A stretch of 64,000 nucleotides of DNA, taken from Prevotella sp. Its GTDB lineage: Bacteria > Bacteroidota > Bacteroidia > Bacteroidales > Bacteroidaceae. The notes under the pieces are model-generated. The model made no database searches. It was not told the origin of the DNA and saw only the letters and a list, made by a program, of their open reading frames with translations. The position numbers and the translations under genes are program-made. This document shows positions 13,110 through 19,321 of this stretch, piece after piece. Location: contig JAEEWT010000013.1 of assembly GCA_016287755.1 (NCBI GenBank), positions 48,177 to 112,176 of the forward strand. Reading direction: 5' to 3'. How positions within the stretch are numbered: position 1 is the first letter of the stretch; each line of letters opens with the position of its first letter.

Positions 13110-13198
13110 CGTACCTTTGGCTTTGCCGAATGTACTCACGTTCGGAAAAACTCAAATTTTGTTTGGTTTTTCGCTTACTTATTCGTACCTTTGGCTTC
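13110..13198 (+). repeat. Promoter-associated hairpin repeat, copy B (1 unit)
   Basis: CGTACCTTTGGCTT at 13110 and 13184 (74-bp period) enclosing TTTGCCGAATGTACTCACGTTCG and a GAAAAAC...GTTTTTC hairpin; ATG follows at 13199. Confidence 0.78.
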
Positions 13199-15055
13199 AT
13201 GAAACATTTCCACCCACTTCAAACCGACATTGCACGACCAAAGCAGTTCAATGATCCGTTTGATTACGAGCCACACCCGCTGAGTATCTTAGCGGTAGAA
13301 GAGGTGCAGCAGTATATCATGGAGCACCCTGAGATTAAGGAGGATGCTGATCAAGGGAAGATGTTTGGGGTGTTGGTTGTTTCTCTTCCGAGGAAGGACG
13401 AAGGAGAAAGGAGGAAGGAGATTTCTTCTGAGATACAGAATGAGGGTGCGGGAATTGGATTCTTGGCGGCGTATAGCGGATTGCTGGCTGGCAGGAACGA
13501 CTGGGAGTGGTTTGTGCCACCCGTGTTCGATGCGCAGGATCCTGATGGGTACTTCAAGGTGCATGAGCAGAAGATAACCGAGATGAACCACGAAGTGGAG
13601 TTGTTAGAAAAGGATTTGGATCATCTCTATCACCAGTCCGACTACCTGAAGATGCTTCGTACCACGGAGAACCTGCTCAGTGAACACGAGAAGAAGATGA
13701 AGACCGCTAAGGTGCTGCGCGACATGAAGCGTCTGCAACGCAACATCTCCCCTGAAGAGAATGCGGAGCTAATCCGAGAGAGTCAGTTCATGAAGGCCGA
13801 GATGCGGCGCATCAAGAAGCGCTGTGAGGAACTGGAGAAGCCGTGGAAGGAAAAGGAGCAATCACTGACAGACAGAATTGAACAACTGAAGAAACAACGC
13901 AAGGAGGCATCTGACGACCTACAGCGCTGGCTGTTCTCACAATACAAGATGAGGAACGCGCAGGGTGAGACCAAAGACCTCATCGAGATCTTCAACGACT
14001 ATAACGGTCAGCTACCCCCAGCGGGGTCGGGTGACTGCTGTGCACCGAAACTCCTGCAGTATGCTTTTGAGAACAACCTCCAACCCCTTTGCATGGCCGA
14101 ATTCTGGTGGGGCGCATCGCCCAAGATGGAGATCCGTCATCACCTGAACTATTATCCCGCCTGCAGAGGGAAGTGCCTCCCGATTTTGGGGTGGATGTTA
14201 TCGAGGAGGAAGGACGAAGGAGGAAGGACGAAGGAGATTACTTCTGAGATACAGGATTCGAAGGATTCAGCACAAGACTCATATACACAGGACATTTCTC
14301 CTTCCTCCCTCCTCCTTCCTCCTTCCTCGAAAAATATCCTCTTCGAAGACTCCCACCTCCTCGTGCTGAACAAACCCGCTGGGATGCTGAGTGTGCCGGG
14401 GAAGACTGGGGATGTGAGTGTGGAGAGCATGATGAGGGATTATCTGCATGATGATATGAATCCTATCATCGTGCACCGACTCGATATGGATACCTCAGGA
14501 CTGATGGTCGTTGCCAAGACTAAATGGACTTACACGGAGCTGCAAAAGCAGTTCCTGGAGCATCAGGTAGAGAAAACATACGTGGCTCTATTAGAGCACA
14601 TGCCCGAGGGAAAACCGCTCAAAGGCACCATCTCCCTACCCCTCCGACCGGATATTTATGACCGTCCGCGACAGCTGGTGGATTGGGAGAATGGGAAGGA
14701 GGCGATCACAGAATATTGGATTTCGAGGAAGGACGAAGGAGGAGGGAGGAAGGAGATTACTTCTGAGATACAGGATACAAAGGAGTCTGTTCAGGACACA
14801 GGCACCCAGTACATTTCTCCTTCCTCCTTCGTCCTTCCTCCTTCCTCGATAAGAATAACCCTCCGTCCCCGCACAGGGCGGACCCACCAACTGCGCGTGC
14901 ACTGCGCCCACCAGGAAGGATTGGGGGTGCCGATTGTGGGAGATGCGCTGTATGGACATCGGGCCGACCGCCTTTATCTGCATGCCGAAACACTGTCGTT
15001 CATTCATCCTAAGACGGGTGAACGACTCACCTTCACGGCACCCGCACCATTCTAA
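13199..15055 (+). CDS. rluA: RluA family pseudouridine synthase with long N-terminal domain, carrying three in-frame repeat insertions
   Basis: Start refined to ATG 13199 (MKHFHPL). Motifs GKMFGVLVV, AGSGDCCAPKLLQYA, NKPAGMLSVPG, VHRLDMDTSG, TGRTHQLRVH, RLYLHA. Confidence 0.93.
   Translation: MKHFHPLQTDIARPKQFNDPFDYEPHPLSILAVEEVQQYIMEHPEIKEDADQGKMFGVLVVSLPRKDEGERRKEISSEIQNEGAGIGFLAAYSGLLAGRNDWEWFVPPVFDAQDPDGYFKVHEQKITEMNHEVELLEKDLDHLYHQSDYLKMLRTTENLLSEHEKKMKTAKVLRDMKRLQRNISPEENAELIRESQFMKAEMRRIKKRCEELEKPWKEKEQSLTDRIEQLKKQRKEASDDLQRWLFSQYKMRNAQGETKDLIEIFNDYNGQLPPAGSGDCCAPKLLQYAFENNLQPLCMAEFWWGASPKMEIRHHLNYYPACRGKCLPILGWMLSRRKDEGGRTKEITSEIQDSKDSAQDSYTQDISPSSLLLPPSSKNILFEDSHLLVLNKPAGMLSVPGKTGDVSVESMMRDYLHDDMNPIIVHRLDMDTSGLMVVAKTKWTYTELQKQFLEHQVEKTYVALLEHMPEGKPLKGTISLPLRPDIYDRPRQLVDWENGKEAITEYWISRKDEGGGRKEITSEIQDTKESVQDTGTQYISPSSFVLPPSSIRITLRPRTGRTHQLRVHCAHQEGLGVPIVGDALYGHRADRLYLHAETLSFIHPKTGERLTFTAPAPF
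13389..13438 (+). repeat. Intragenic palindromic element, left arm plus core (rluA copy 1)
   Basis: CGAGGAAGGACGAAGGAGAAAGGAGGAAGGAGATTTCTTCTGAGATACAG, read in frame as PRKDEGERRKEISSEIQ. Confidence 0.85.
14201..14330 (+). repeat. Intragenic palindromic element, complete 130-bp copy (rluA copy 2)
   Basis: TCGAGGAGGAAGGACGAAGG... / ...CCTTCCTCCTTCCTCGA arms with core CTTCTGAGATACAG at 14241; encodes SRRKDEGGRTKEITSEIQ...ISPSSLLLPPSS. Confidence 0.9.
14723..14849 (+). repeat. Intragenic palindromic element, complete 127-bp copy (rluA copy 3)
   Basis: TCGAGGAAGGACGAAGGAGG... / ...CCTTCGTCCTTCCTCCTTCCTCGA with core CTTCTGAGATACAG at 14760; encodes SRKDEGGGRKEITSEIQ...ISPSSFVLPPSS. Confidence 0.9.
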
Positions 15056-15179
15056 AGTTACAGTTGTTCCCCTTCCGACAAGGTCTCAACATGTTCAGAT
15101 TGTGTCAATATTGAAGAATTCCTTGTCAAAATGAGAAGAAAGTTTCATGGTCTCGGAAAAAAGTGTTTCCTTTGCACCC

Positions 15180-16142
15180 ATGAAACAGAACAACCAGCCT
15201 CTCATCTTAACGATCACCGGTTCCGACGGCACTGGCGGCTCCGGAGTACAGGCAGACATCAAGACCATCACGAATCTGGGTGGTTATGCTGTTTCTGTCG
15301 TTACCTCGGTCACCATGCAGAACACTTTGGGTATCCAGGAGTTTTACGACCTGCCCAGCGGGATCATTGCCCGGCAGATCGAGGCCATCATGGATGATGT
15401 GGTGCCCGAAGCAGTGAAGATTGGAATGCTGAGGAACGTGGAGACGGTGGAGGTGGTGACCCGGTTGTTAGAGAAATACCACCCGCAGTATATCGTCTAT
15501 GATCCCGTCGTCACAACCGTTCGTGGTGAGCAGCTCATGAGTGACGAGGTGGTGAAAGCCATTGCCGAGCATCTGGTCCCTCTGTGCCATGTCATTACCC
15601 GTCGCGGAGCCGATGAGGTAGTTGTATCTGCCCGTGGACGATCCTACCCGTTACCACAGCTCACCCATGCAAATAGTCATGGTCTGGGTGGTGCGCTCTC
15701 CTCAGCCATTGCCACCTATCTGGCACAAGGTAACAGTTTTGAGGAAGCCATCCTGCAAGCCAACAGCTACGTGAACCGTCAGGTGGCCTACATCAGTAAC
15801 CTCCAAGGCAGGAGCAGTGAGCTGTATAACGAGTTCCTGAGTGAGCTCACCCTTCACCATGCCACCAATCGCGATGTCCATTTCTATGCCGATATGCTGA
15901 ATGTCAGTGCCCGCTACCTGGCGCAGGTCACCAAGCGCATTACAGGACAGTCGCCCAAGATGATTATCGACGAGTATCTGCTGCAGGAAATCAAGCTTTC
16001 CCTGATCAATACGAAAAAGTGCATTCAAGAGGTGGCCTATCAATACGGGTTCCACTCCCAGGCACAGTTCACGAAGTTCTTCAAGAAACTCACAGGAGAG
16101 AATCCAACCCAGTTCCGTCACAAACACAGAAGAATAGAATAA
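15180..16142 (+). CDS. ThiD/PdxK-like (degenerate) kinase domain fused to AraC HTH; probable regulator
   Basis: Start refined to ATG 15180. N-terminus ILTITGSDGTGGSGVQADIKT, VTMQNT, VKIGML, YDPV; C-terminus LNVSARYLAQVTK and YGFHSQAQFTKFFKK. Confidence 0.85.
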   Translation: MKQNNQPLILTITGSDGTGGSGVQADIKTITNLGGYAVSVVTSVTMQNTLGIQEFYDLPSGIIARQIEAIMDDVVPEAVKIGMLRNVETVEVVTRLLEKYHPQYIVYDPVVTTVRGEQLMSDEVVKAIAEHLVPLCHVITRRGADEVVVSARGRSYPLPQLTHANSHGLGGALSSAIATYLAQGNSFEEAILQANSYVNRQVAYISNLQGRSSELYNEFLSELTLHHATNRDVHFYADMLNVSARYLAQVTKRITGQSPKMIIDEYLLQEIKLSLINTKKCIQEVAYQYGFHSQAQFTKFFKKLTGENPTQFRHKHRRIE

Positions 16143-16164
16143 ATCACAAACACAATAGAATAAA

Positions 16165-17040
16165 ATGAAAGAGAACAGACAAACCCTGAACCGCAACCTG
16201 GCACAGATGCTCAAGGGCGGTGTGATTATGGACGTGACAACACCCGAACAGGCCCGTATCGCCGAGGCAGCCGGAGCCTGTGCCGTGATGGCCTTAGAGC
16301 GTATCCCCGCGGATATCCGTGCCGCTGGCGGTGTGTCCCGTATGAGCGACCCGAAGATGATCCGTGGTATCCAGGAGGCTGTCACCATCCCCGTTATGGC
16401 CAAATGCCGCATCGGTCATTTTGCCGAGGCCCAGATCCTGCAGGCCATCGAGATTGATTACATCGATGAGAGTGAGGTGCTGTCACCGGCAGATGATGTG
16501 TTTCATATCGACAAGACCCAGTTCGAGGTACCGTTCGTATGTGGTGCCAAGGACTTAGGTGAGGCTTTGCGTCGCATTGCCGAAGGTGCCACGATGATAC
16601 GCACCAAGGGGGAGCCGGGAACAGGTGACATCATTCAGGCGGTGCGCCACATGCGGATGATGCAGAGTGAGATACGCCGACTGGTGAGCATGAGTGAGGA
16701 TGAGCTGTATGAGGCAGCCAAGCAGTTGCGTGCCCCTTACGACCTTGTCAAGTTCGTCCATGAGAACGGTAAGCTGCCCGTAGTGAACTTCGCCGCCGGC
16801 GGTGTGGCCACACCAGCCGATGCTGCCCTGATGATGCAGTTGGGTGCCGAGGGAGTGTTCGTGGGATCAGGTATCTTCAAGAGCGGCAACCCCGCCAAGC
16901 GGGCTCAGGCTATTGTGAAGGCCGTTACCAACTACCGCGATGCGAAACTGTTGGCAGAGCTGTCGGAAGATCTCGGAGAGGCCATGGTAGGCATCAACGA
17001 GAGTGAGATCCAGCTGTTGATGGCGGAAAGAGGGAAGTGA
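16165..17040 (+). CDS. pdxS: Pyridoxal 5'-phosphate synthase lyase subunit
   Basis: [54 protein letters not shown]. Confidence 0.98.
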
Positions 17041-17041
17041 G

Positions 17042-17596
17042 ATGAGGATAGCGGTATTGGCATTACAAGGGGCGTTTGCGGAACATGAGCAGATGTTGGA
17101 ACGCATCGGTGTGGACTATTTCGAGGTGAGACAGGCAGCCGACTGGCAACAGCCGAAGGATGGTTTGATCCTTCCCGGCGGGGAGAGCACCACGATGATG
17201 AAGCTGCTGCATGACCTGGGGTTGTATCACGACATCCAGCAAGCCATACAAGAGGGGCTGCCCGTCTTCGGCACCTGTGCTGGTCTTATCCTACTCGACC
17301 GCTTCCACTTAGGAACCATGGACATCGTGGCACGCCGCAATGCCTACGGACGACAATTGGGCAGCTTTCACACACTGGCACCGTTCAAAGGGATTCCCGA
17401 CGAGGTGCCCATGACCTTTATCCGCGCACCCTATATCCAAGAGACAGGAGAGGAGGTGGAGGTGCTGGCAGTGGTTGATCACCATATCGTGGCAGCACGA
17501 CAAGGCCATCAGCTTGTCACCGCCTTCCATCCCGAACTCGATGAGGATCCCCGACTCCACCAGTACTTTATCAGCATGGTACATGATTCCCTTTAA
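17042..17596 (+). CDS. pdxT: Pyridoxal 5'-phosphate synthase glutaminase subunit
   Basis: [37 protein letters not shown]. Confidence 0.97.
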
Positions 17597-17758
17597 CTTC
17601 ACCGAAGGTTCTCACACTCGGAAAACCAAAGAAAAACAAGCTTTTCACTCGTTTATTCGTAACTTTGGCTTCGCCGAAGTTACTTCCGCTCGGAAAACCA
17701 AAGAAAAACAAGCTTTTCTTTGGTTTTTCACTCGCTTAATCGTAACTTTGCAGCCGAT
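17594..17758 (+). repeat. Promoter-associated hairpin repeat, copy C (2 tandem units)
   Basis: CTCGGAAAACCAAAGAAAAACAAGCTTTTC twice; each unit ends in CGTAACTTTG. Unit 2 has a perfect 14-bp stem, unit 1 lacks most of the right arm. Confidence 0.85.
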
Positions 17759-18577
17759 ATGGCAAAAAAGCAGATATTATTGATCAACGACCTTGCCGGC
17801 TATGGTAAGGTGGCCACGGCAGCGATGCTTCCCATCCTGTCGTATATGGGGCACCCTGTGTATAACCTCCCTACGGCGCTGGTATCGAACACCCTCGACT
17901 ATGGGAAGTTCAATATCATGGACACCACGGATTATATAAAAGGTGTATTCCCGGTGTGGAAGGAACTCGGTTTCAGTTTCGATGCTATTGCCACTGGATT
18001 CATTGCCAGTGAGCGACAGGCACAGATTGTGGCTGCCTACTGTCGTGAGCAAGCTGCCAACGGTACGGTGATCTTCGTTGATCCTATCATGGGTGATGAG
18101 GGAAAGCTGTATAATGGTGTTACGGAAGCGGCCGTGCAGAGCATGCGCGAGATGATTAGTGTGGCCCATCTGATCTTCCCTAACTACACCGAGGCCTGTT
18201 ACCTTACCGATACCCCTTATCGGAAAGAAGGCGTGAACTGGCAGGAGGCCAAGGAACTGCTTGACAAGCTGCGCCAATTAGGCACAAAGTCGGCCTTGAT
18301 CACCAGTCTGATGGTAGATGGGCAATGTGCGGTGGTGGGCTATAACCACTTCATCGGCGAGTATTTCCTACTTCCCTATACCGAGATCCCCGTCCACTTC
18401 CCCGGTACAGGCGATATGTTCTCAGCCATCCTCATCGGTCATCTGCTCAACGACGAGCCGTTGAAACCCAGTACCCGTATTGCCATGGACGCCCTCTATC
18501 GTCTGATTGAGGTAAACAAAGACAATGAGGACAAAAACCGGGGCATCCCCATCGAGAACTGGCTCTCACTCCTTTGA
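17759..18577 (+). CDS. pdxK: Pyridoxal/pyridoxamine kinase
   Basis: Start refined to ATG 17759 (MAKKQILLIND). Motifs LPTALVSN, VDPIMGD, PNYTEA, FPGTGDMF. Confidence 0.9.
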   Translation: MAKKQILLINDLAGYGKVATAAMLPILSYMGHPVYNLPTALVSNTLDYGKFNIMDTTDYIKGVFPVWKELGFSFDAIATGFIASERQAQIVAAYCREQAANGTVIFVDPIMGDEGKLYNGVTEAAVQSMREMISVAHLIFPNYTEACYLTDTPYRKEGVNWQEAKELLDKLRQLGTKSALITSLMVDGQCAVVGYNHFIGEYFLLPYTEIPVHFPGTGDMFSAILIGHLLNDEPLKPSTRIAMDALYRLIEVNKDNEDKNRGIPIENWLSLL

Positions 18578-18628
18578 CCGAGTCCCTTTGACCTTTGACC
18601 GAATCCCTTAGACCAAGTCCATCAGGCA

Positions 18629-19321
18629 TCACTCATTGCGTTTGTCGATGATTTGATATCCCTGATACTTCTGTCGGGGGAAGACGAACAGGTCATCACT
18701 GATATTCCCACTCTTGAAGTTACTGATCTTCACTGTTGTGCTGATAATTCCCAACTTAATGCGAAGACTCAAAGGGTAGCGTGTCTTCTTATCAATTAAG
18801 GCATGTATCTCTTTGATGCCCTTCACTCCTTTCTTTGCTTTCAAGGTAACGACAAACCCTTCATCACTATCAGCAATGCTGTATAGGAAATTCTCGGGTT
18901 CGAACTTGAACTTCGTGGCATACTTGTCACGTTTGTCGGAATTTGCATCATATATAGAAACCGTTTTCTTCTTCCGCTCCACCAGATAATAGGTGACGCC
19001 ATCACTGAAAGCGTTATACTTCTCATCCACGAACTTGCTCTTCTTACCCTTATACCAGATTGTACCCTCGGTTTTGTAGATACCTATGATATTGACAGCA
19101 TAATGCAATGTGGAACCCTGAGCACCAAACACCATCTGATAGGTACGGTCAAAGATCTGCCGGGCCTGTCGGGCATTGGCCGACTGCTCCTGAGGGGCAG
19201 ACTTTGCCTTTTTGGATTGAGCGGACGTCAGTTGGGGCGAAATAAGACCTACGACAATTAGCAGGAATAAAAATCCCCACCTCTTCCACACGATGATTGG
19301 GAATATATCAACTTTTCGCAT
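18629..19321 (-). CDS. LolA-like outer-membrane lipoprotein carrier-type protein
   Basis: Probable start 19321 or later; signal-like segment, EGTIWYKGKK, SDGVTYY, beta-rich LolA-like pattern. Confidence 0.6.
   Translation of the reverse strand: MRKVDIFPIIVWKRWGFLFLLIVVGLISPQLTSAQSKKAKSAPQEQSANARQARQIFDRTYQMVFGAQGSTLHYAVNIIGIYKTEGTIWYKGKKSKFVDEKYNAFSDGVTYYLVERKKKTVSIYDANSDKRDKYATKFKFEPENFLYSIADSDEGFVVTLKAKKGVKGIKEIHALIDKKTRYPLSLRIKLGIISTTVKISNFKSGNISDDLFVFPRQKYQGYQIIDKRNE

Follow-up and report, generated by a model that had tools for sequence, protein, structure and literature searches.

A degenerate ThiD kinase fused to an AraC domain as a candidate regulator of vitamin B6 synthesis in Prevotella

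One may ask what a gene that resembles half of a thiamine-pathway kinase, joined to a DNA-binding domain, is doing directly ahead of the genes for vitamin B6 synthesis. The question is raised by a locus of Prevotella sp. (assembly GCA_016287755.1, contig JAEEWT010000013.1, forward strand, positions 48,177-112,176); this whole 64-kb stretch is further termed the window, and positions are counted within it. The product of the gene combines a domain similar to ThiD, the kinase of hydroxymethylpyrimidine (HMP) and its phosphate (HMP-P), with an AraC/XylS-type helix-turn-helix (HTH) domain, and the gene precedes pdxS and pdxT, which encode the lyase and glutaminase subunits of pyridoxal 5'-phosphate (PLP) synthase. 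A first-pass annotation of the same DNA read the protein (here called the regulator or, family-wide, the fusion) as an inactive kinase turned into a sensor that autoregulates B6 synthesis. The present analysis points in the same direction: the regulator is quite probably a one-component transcription factor of pdxST, presumably an activator, that would respond to a B6 vitamer, and it is the foremost candidate for the role of B6 regulator in Prevotella-type Bacteroidales.

The fusion is tied to pdxST by both synteny and co-occurrence. In a species-representative collection all ten fusion loci, which reach down to 35% identity, carry pdxS-pdxT immediately downstream. Searches of 301 genomes of the GTDB family, using the complete protein, the Pfam profile SOR_SNZ and the C-terminal part specific to the fusions, found both the fusion and pdxS in 43, pdxS only in 6, the fusion only in none and neither in 252 (Fisher's exact p = 5e-46, for genomes that are not independent). 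More telling than this p value is the match within genera, since presence and absence of the two genes coincide exactly within six of them: both are found in 14 of 17 genomes of g1 (the genus of the window), 10/16 of g10, 15/16 of g16, 1/4 of g19, 2/3 of g25 and 1/7 of g2. In 33 of the 43 genomes the fusion immediately precedes pdxS with the same orientation, and in 2 it is divergent; the remaining ones have pdxST inverted about 2.4 kb away (2 genomes), at a distance of 6 kb (1) or unlinked (5). Five of the six fusion copies from the other three families of the order also adjoin pdxST. It had been anticipated that homologs of the ThiD-AraC fusion would co-localise with pdxST, and they do so across six genera and three further families.

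The DNA in front of these genes is conserved as well. Upstream regions of nearly all loci share a 45-nt motif, tTTnTnCAAAnTGnnnTTTcnTTTGTCAaAAnGGGAAC(n4)TTT, composed of two related half-sites 20-21 nt apart. The window copy spans 15101-15145, and the TGTCAA hexamers at 15103 and 15124, already noticed in the first-pass annotation as direct repeats with a 21-nt period, are the cores of its two half-sites. They form the sole such pair in the window, against a chance expectation of 0.02, and two of 100 shuffles gave at least one match. The promoter of Bacteroidetes has the layout TTTG-N19-21-TAnnTTTG, and the spacing found here agrees with it: a -33-like TTTG or TTTC stands 4 nt after the operator and 20 nt before the -7 box. 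The latter, also pointed out earlier as lying downstream of the repeats, is TTCCTTTG at 15167-15174. From the distal half-site through the -7 box, a stretch of 88 columns, fifteen loci can be aligned gaplessly, and at 37 of 37 distinct sites the -7 TTTG begins 32 nt (33 nt in four of them) after the last base of GGAAC. Two operator variants occur in the family, TTTGTCAAAAnGGGAAC and GAAAnGGAAC; the second is found twice, 21 nt apart, at the pdxS promoter of genus g10, where a count by hand at one locus (L066) gave the same 32-33 nt from the variant operator to the -7 box.

It is pdxS that the motif accompanies, and not the regulator gene. In three loci (L042, L045, L046) it is located in the spacer between the regulator and pdxS, with none upstream of the regulator; in two loci with inverted pdxST (L057, L058) it precedes pdxS; and in genome G151, in which pdxS lies on another contig (L071), it is present upstream of pdxS at the contig start and absent upstream of the regulator. 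A held-out matrix made from 31 sites of other species, with the lineage of the window excluded, placed the window site at the top of 6.4 million positions of its own genome (25.1 bits vs 18.9 for the next one). No second site with the correct -7 spacing was found genome-wide with the full matrix, with the proximal half alone or with the held-out matrix. Since the motif tracks pdxS rather than the regulator, is locked to the promoter and is unique in the genome, it is proposed as the candidate operator of the regulator, and it is very likely that pdxST is controlled through this 45-nt site. The arrangement, a conserved two-part motif beside the -33 element, would suit AraC/XylS half-sites, to which the regulator may bind. 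Co-occurrence, synteny and a promoter-locked operator that follows pdxS all support the initial view of the gene as a regulator of B6 synthesis. The autoregulation that had been proposed with it holds in part: it fits loci such as that of the window, where the motif is followed first by the regulator, and fails for those in which the motif separates the regulator from pdxS.

An RNA element or riboswitch in the leader was also considered and rejected: RNAalifold predicted no pairs in the 15 aligned loci, and an Rfam search of 14800-18800 at permissive thresholds gave only two chance-level snoRNA matches (E 0.31 and 0.69), far below gathering scores. Complementary sequences flank the core in some close relatives (ATGATGTT..AACATCAT) but are not kept in other clades. 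A scan for sigma-70 promoters and terminators was uninformative for the Bacteroidetes promoter.

How could such a regulator act? In the proposed mechanism, the ThiD-derived domain, which keeps the vitamin-binding half of the enzyme, would bind a small molecule without phosphorylating it; as ThiD enzymes are dimers, this domain probably brings about dimerisation of the protein too. Two direct half-sites about 21 bp apart would then be occupied by the C-terminal AraC domains, and the proximal half-site, whose end is about 4 nt short of the -33 element (at about -41), would place the protein where an activator can recruit RNA polymerase. In the window, this promoter would drive the regulator, pdxS and pdxT as one transcript, with positive autoregulation. 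A B6 vitamer in the dead pocket, most likely the end product PLP, or else pyridoxal (PL), pyridoxine (PN) or pyridoxamine (PM), would lower activation and in this way provide feedback control of de novo B6 synthesis, analogous to the action of PLP on the regulator PdxR. RNA sequencing of Prevotella bivia found pdxT, pdxS and a gene annotated as 'bifunctional HMP kinase' co-upregulated (PMC11410844), which would fit co-transcription if that gene is the fusion.

The sign of control deserves separate consideration. The same sensor and the same site could serve a repressor, or a protein that switches between repression and activation, as AraC itself does. Activation is nonetheless favoured with reasonable, though limited, confidence, because the entire site precedes the -33 element, its distance to the -7 box is rigid and neither promoter element is covered by it, and because many of these promoters, including that of the window, have an imperfect -33 element, which is typical of activator-dependent promoters. 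Repression or switching is accordingly regarded as unlikely, although it deserves attention.

The protein itself explains why it is so easily taken for an enzyme and why it is probably not one. The 331-aa open reading frame matches Pfam Phos_pyr_kin with E 3e-50, at profile positions 1-124 of 246 only, plus a short second stretch. With the ThiD equivalog TIGR00097 it scores 167.9 bits, below the cut-off of 204.95, and instead of matching over the full length it covers profile positions 1-132 of 254 together with a short piece at the C-terminus. Alignment to ThiD structures and true ThiDs agrees in every detail with the motifs listed in the first-pass annotation. The N-terminal substrate-side motifs of ThiD/PdxK type (GSDGTGGSGVQADIK, TMQNT and DPV) are intact; ITPNxxEA of ThiD has become ITRRGADE, i.e., ITRR in place of TPNxxE; about 46 residues including KGGH are missing; and the anion-hole motif NTHG(T/S)GC reads NSHGLGG, without the catalytic Cys. 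The AraC-type HTH that had been recognised behind the kinase-like domain is located at residues 247-325 (HTH_18/HTH_AraC: PF12833 75.9 bits, cut-off 33.6; PF00165 44.5 bits, cut-off 26.6). An AlphaFold2 model from a 48-sequence alignment reached a mean predicted local distance difference test score of 83.2, and its best fold matches in the PDB are the HMP-P kinases 8g1h, 7r8y, 4jjp and 1jxh, with E down to 1e-16.

Loss of the kinase motifs is a property of the whole family, as a comparison of 156 distinct fusion proteins with true ThiDs revealed. Pro-Asn of the TPN motif occurs in none of them, nor does the catalytic Cys, which is replaced by Asn (139), Gly (9) or Ser (8); the KGGH segment is deleted in 140-143 (about 90%), and the few that retain it have Gln or Arg for Lys. 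On the substrate side, GSD, Q24, D26, Q47, K80, G82, H167 and G168 are retained in 156/156, and 40 positions are highly conserved in common between the fusions and 23 true ThiDs. There are also invariants specific to the fusions: A13T and A21S inside the substrate motifs, at two positions that are invariant in ThiD and replaced in every fusion, together with R85 and R211. The lengths of the fusion proteins vary from 291 to 417 aa, partly due to different lineages losing different amounts of the ATP lobe. The sensor domain is thus best described as a copy of a ThiD kinase with its substrate half kept and very probably without catalytic activity, which agrees with the earlier suggestion of an inactive kinase; it should be able to bind a small molecule and not to phosphorylate it. 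The substrate-side pocket is, judging from these alignments, under selection but altered in comparison with ThiD.

The pattern also bears on the idea that the ThiD remnant is nothing other than a dimerisation scaffold, the regulator being constitutive or depending on its own amount or on a partner protein. ThiD forms dimers and AraC proteins need a dimerising N-terminal domain; moreover, the ATP half decays freely and the DPV region of the pocket varies. However, GSD, Q.D, QNT and HG, for which no part in dimerisation is known, do not vary among 156 sequences with identities as low as about 35%, and the loss of ATP-side motifs beside kept substrate motifs is what selection on a ligand pocket is expected to leave, so a pure scaffold appears improbable.

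If the pocket binds a ligand, which one is it? With the same architecture, the ligand could be the thiamine-pathway pyrimidine of the ThiD ancestor (HMP, HMP-P or a related compound), and B6 synthesis would then be coupled to pyrimidine or thiamine status. HMP-P kinases are the best matches in sequence and fold, and QNT is kept in 156/156 fusions. Set against this is the biology of the host: neither ThiC nor a true ThiD was found in the genome of the window (99.98% complete), which has only a weak ThiE-like match of 29.8 bits and probably belongs to a thiamine auxotroph. Apart from the regulator, it has no gene that an annotation pipeline would name ThiD. Because ThiC and a true ThiD are missing, the cell should lack HMP-P as a signal and should not need a ThiD enzyme. 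No thi genes or thiamine pyrophosphate riboswitch were found near the locus (Rfam, 14800-18800), the neighbours being pdxS and pdxT, and the regulon appears to be a single PLP-making operon. Finally, A13T and A21S in every fusion suggest a changed specificity. An HMP-type ligand is therefore considered very doubtful. A role as an active HMP/HMP-P or pyridoxal kinase, perhaps as a bifunctional enzyme and regulator like BirA or NadR, is hardly credible despite the source annotations and the strong PF08543 match of the N-terminal half, as the score stays under the TIGR00097 cut-off, neither TPN nor the catalytic Cys occurs in any of the 156 fusions, the ATP lobe has lost 46 residues here and the genome has no pathway that uses HMP diphosphate. 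Altogether, HMP sensing and an enzymatic role are both unlikely, and a B6 vitamer (PLP or the salvageable PL, PN or PM) is mildly favoured as the ligand, since the regulon consists of one PLP-synthase operon, no HMP-P is made and A13T and A21S are present in every fusion.

Several observations nevertheless weigh against the fusion being a B6-responsive activator of pdxST. First, the sensor is nearer to HMP kinases than to ThiD-type pyridoxal kinases in both sequence and fold: the regulator matches TIGR00097 (HMP-P kinase) at 2.4e-49 vs 3.4e-27 for PRK12412 (pyridoxal kinase; 95.5 bits, below its cut-off of 385), and HMP kinases of the PDB at 1e-41 vs 1e-18 to 1e-19 for the ThiD-type PL kinases 2I5B and 4C5J. 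As it also keeps the QNT glutamine of true ThiDs, its ancestry points to HMP rather than B6; no open paper listing the residues that determine HMP or PL specificity was found. Second, the pocket is not uniform family-wide: the Asp of DPV, present here, is Ala in 108/156 homologs, and the residues that follow vary. Third, six pdxS-positive genomes of two genera have neither the regulator nor the motif, and the system is therefore dispensable. Fourth, the fusion copies of G151 (L056, 4912-7327) and G419 (L082, 3667-6187) are followed not by pdxS but by a same-strand AAA_14/DUF4143 ATPase gene; this neighbour, shared by unrelated genomes, may have come by insertion of a mobile element or may be a target of another kind. 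Fifth, the promoter is a predicted one, assigned by consensus and conservation, and it would give the mRNA of the window locus no leader or almost none.

The only well-known regulator of pdxST is PdxR, of the MocR/GabR type, which operates in Corynebacterium, Streptococcus, Listeria and Bacillus clausii; it is also the B6 regulator named in RegPrecise-based work (PMC6593275). Both proteins are local regulators beside pdxST that act, or would act, on the pdxST promoter with presumed feedback by a B6 vitamer, and both use a sensor derived from an enzyme fold. Nevertheless, PdxR carries a GntR winged HTH and a PLP domain resembling fold-type-I aminotransferases, neither of which Pfam finds in the regulator, whereas the fusion has a C-terminal AraC domain, a dead kinase of ribokinase fold as sensor and a Bacteroidales host, and its gene usually precedes pdxST in the same direction. 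The distinction from MocR-type PdxR drawn in the first-pass annotation thus holds.

From ThiD (PF08543, TIGR00097; structures 1JXH/1JXI, 1UB0, 4JJP), its best match in sequence and structure, the fusion has inherited the fold and the substrate-side motifs. By sequence and setting it is not a ThiD: the equivalog score, TPN..E and KGGH, the catalytic Cys and the thiamine context all speak against this assignment, the ATP/Mg2+ motifs are gone, the ATP lobe is shorter, an AraC domain is added and the fusions form a separate clade. The DNA-binding domain places the protein in the AraC/XylS family, and it shares with the activators AraC, RhaS and XylS the C-terminal double HTH and, putatively, two direct half-sites about 21 bp apart, of which the proximal one abuts the -35 equivalent. 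It differs from them in that its N-terminal domain is a degenerate ribokinase-like kinase rather than a cupin/jelly-roll and its promoter has the -33/-7 elements of Bacteroidetes. Inactive vitamin sensors of enzymatic origin are known from other regulators, i.e., archaeal ThiR with its ThiN domain and NrtR with its Nudix domain. In these, too, the enzyme fold of the same or a related pathway is kept as a pocket, catalysis is lost and a DNA-binding domain is fused to it, but the folds, DNA-binding domains and vitamins are others, and in the fusion the sensor comes from the thiamine pathway while the target is B6 synthesis.

We know of no other dead enzyme of ribokinase fold that serves as the ligand sensor of a transcription factor and, to our knowledge, no B6-responsive regulator has been described for the phylum Bacteroidetes. 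A full-text search of the literature turned up neither a described ThiD-AraC fusion nor any described B6 regulator of Bacteroidetes, and in the literature found, an AraC-family one-component regulator with such a dead-kinase sensor is undescribed. Whether it is the founding member of a new Bacteroidales family of B6 regulators, in which a pseudokinase sensor with a re-tuned pocket (A13T, A21S, R85, R211) steers an AraC-type activator, is an evenly balanced proposal.

The family is abundant in few genera and phylogenetically narrow. A word-indexed protein search returned >5,000 related proteins, and the best 120 all carry both domains; the few source-named ones among these 120 are from Prevotella/Segatella and are labelled 'bifunctional hydroxymethylpyrimidine kinase/phosphomethylpyrimidine kinase'. 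An exhaustive search of 1.84 billion cluster representatives with the family-specific C-terminal 177 residues gave 26 clusters at E <= 1e-30, and about 55 among the matches listed cover the linker and the HTH. In 400 genomes of the order only five more fusion-bearing genomes were met, in three other families. In a maximum-likelihood tree of the kinase-like domains 48 of 48 sampled fusions lie on one side of a branch with 100/100 support, and all 23 true ThiDs of the comparison set (Bacteroidaceae and Flavobacteriia) lie across it, which is consistent with a single origin of the sensor domain.

Some loci of this survey have peculiarities of their own. In genus g10 (L066-L070, L074-L075) the regulator is divergent from pdxST or unlinked, at 6 kb to >60 kb or on another contig. 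The six genomes without the regulator (L060-L065, genera g15 and g27) have more divergent pdxST, with pdxS 82-84% identical; their pdxS promoters have the -7 box TATATTTG or TATATTCG, and the surrounding 5 kb or so revealed no regulator gene. Two metagenome-assembled contigs labelled Streptococcaceae and Faecalibacterium prausnitzii (L004, L005) bear a Prevotella-type regulator-pdxS-pdxT with a Bacteroidetes promoter and operator, and are probably mis-binned. In one locus (L036, genome G010) the regulator frame seems to continue into pdxS as a 624-aa open frame, and the match contains one TGA; an assembly error or a pseudogene may account for it, or the two genes may really be fused.

Why would such a regulator matter? 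B6 regulation is uncharted in Bacteroidota, as PdxR is a protein of another family and of other phyla, and the candidate described here can be tested directly, since its proposed operator is defined and its promoter geometry is rigid. The choice of abundant gut and rumen bacteria to make or to take up B6 matters to the host, and if the proposal is true, this switch would control it. Systematic mis-annotation of the family as 'bifunctional HMP/HMP-P kinase' means that metabolic reconstructions of gut and rumen Prevotella/Segatella can wrongly score a thiamine step as present. As a clear natural example of the passage from enzyme to sensor, with the substrate half selected and the ATP half decaying through different deletions in each lineage, the family is useful for studies of pseudoenzyme evolution and may serve as a scaffold for vitamin biosensors.

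The features of the locus are collected in Table 1.

Table 1. Predicted features of the regulator-pdxST locus and its downstream neighbour, in window coordinates
Feature	Position	Strand	Basis or remark
Putative distal operator half-site TGTGTCAATATTGAAG (first TGTCAA 15103-15108)	15101..15116	+	Equals the conserved TTTnTnCAAAnTG block; 15-locus alignment and 45-nt matrix
Putative proximal operator half-site TCCTTGTCAAAATGAGAAG (second TGTCAA 15124-15129)	15120..15138	+	Family consensus TTTGTCAaAAnGGGAAC; most conserved block
Weak -33-like element, TTTC here, TTTG in many relatives	15143..15146	+	Alignment columns 51-54; 20 nt before the -7 box
-7 promoter box TTCCTTTG	15167..15174	+	C + TTTG (columns 78-82) invariant, columns 75-76 nearly so (15 loci)
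Regulator gene, 320 aa from M12 (open reading frame from ATG 15147, 331 aa)	15180..16142	+	Domain matches; start from homologs
Retained substrate-side half of the ThiD fold (GSD..GG.G.QAD, QNT, K.GM, DPV)	15225..15599	+	PF08543 positions 1-124
Degenerate ATP-side remnant (ITRR, KGGH segment deleted, HGLGG), then the last helix of the fold	15600..15785	+	
AraC/XylS double HTH domain	15885..16121	+	PF12833 E 3e-21; PF00165 E 1.6e-11
pdxS, PLP synthase lyase subunit	16165..17040	+	NF003215, 510 bits vs cut-off 395
pdxT, PLP synthase glutaminase subunit	17042..17596	+	TIGR03800, 204.9 bits vs cut-off 105.55
Two tandem hairpin-repeat copies, each ending in the -7 box CGTAACTTTG	17591..17750	+	Separate promoter region for pdxK
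pdxK, pyridoxamine/pyridoxal kinase (PRK07105 type)	17759..18577	+	NF005491, 246.8 bits vs cut-off 231

The regulator probably starts at ATG 15180, since its homologs begin at the equivalent of M12. The stretch 15147-15179, which would encode an apparent peptide KSVSFAP, is taken to be conserved as DNA and not as protein, because the -7 box lies there. At the other end of the gene, its stop codon (16140-16142) is separated from the pdxS ATG at 16165 by 22 nt, as stated in the first-pass annotation. The operon that the regulator was said to head is upheld for pdxS and pdxT and not for pdxK. As a conserved member of the operon pdxK was rejected: it has a promoter repeat of its own and adjoins pdxT only in close relatives (L001, L003). 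The hairpin-repeat copies in the pdxT-pdxK spacer are 72-83 nt apart, start to start. The spacer measures 52 nt in the 98%-identical locus L001 vs 123 nt here (to TTG 17720), which suggests that the repeat region is a recent insertion or duplication. On the upstream side, the gene of an RluA-type pseudouridine synthase (13130-15055) contains repeated in-frame inserts of the form KDEGGRRKEITSEIQD.

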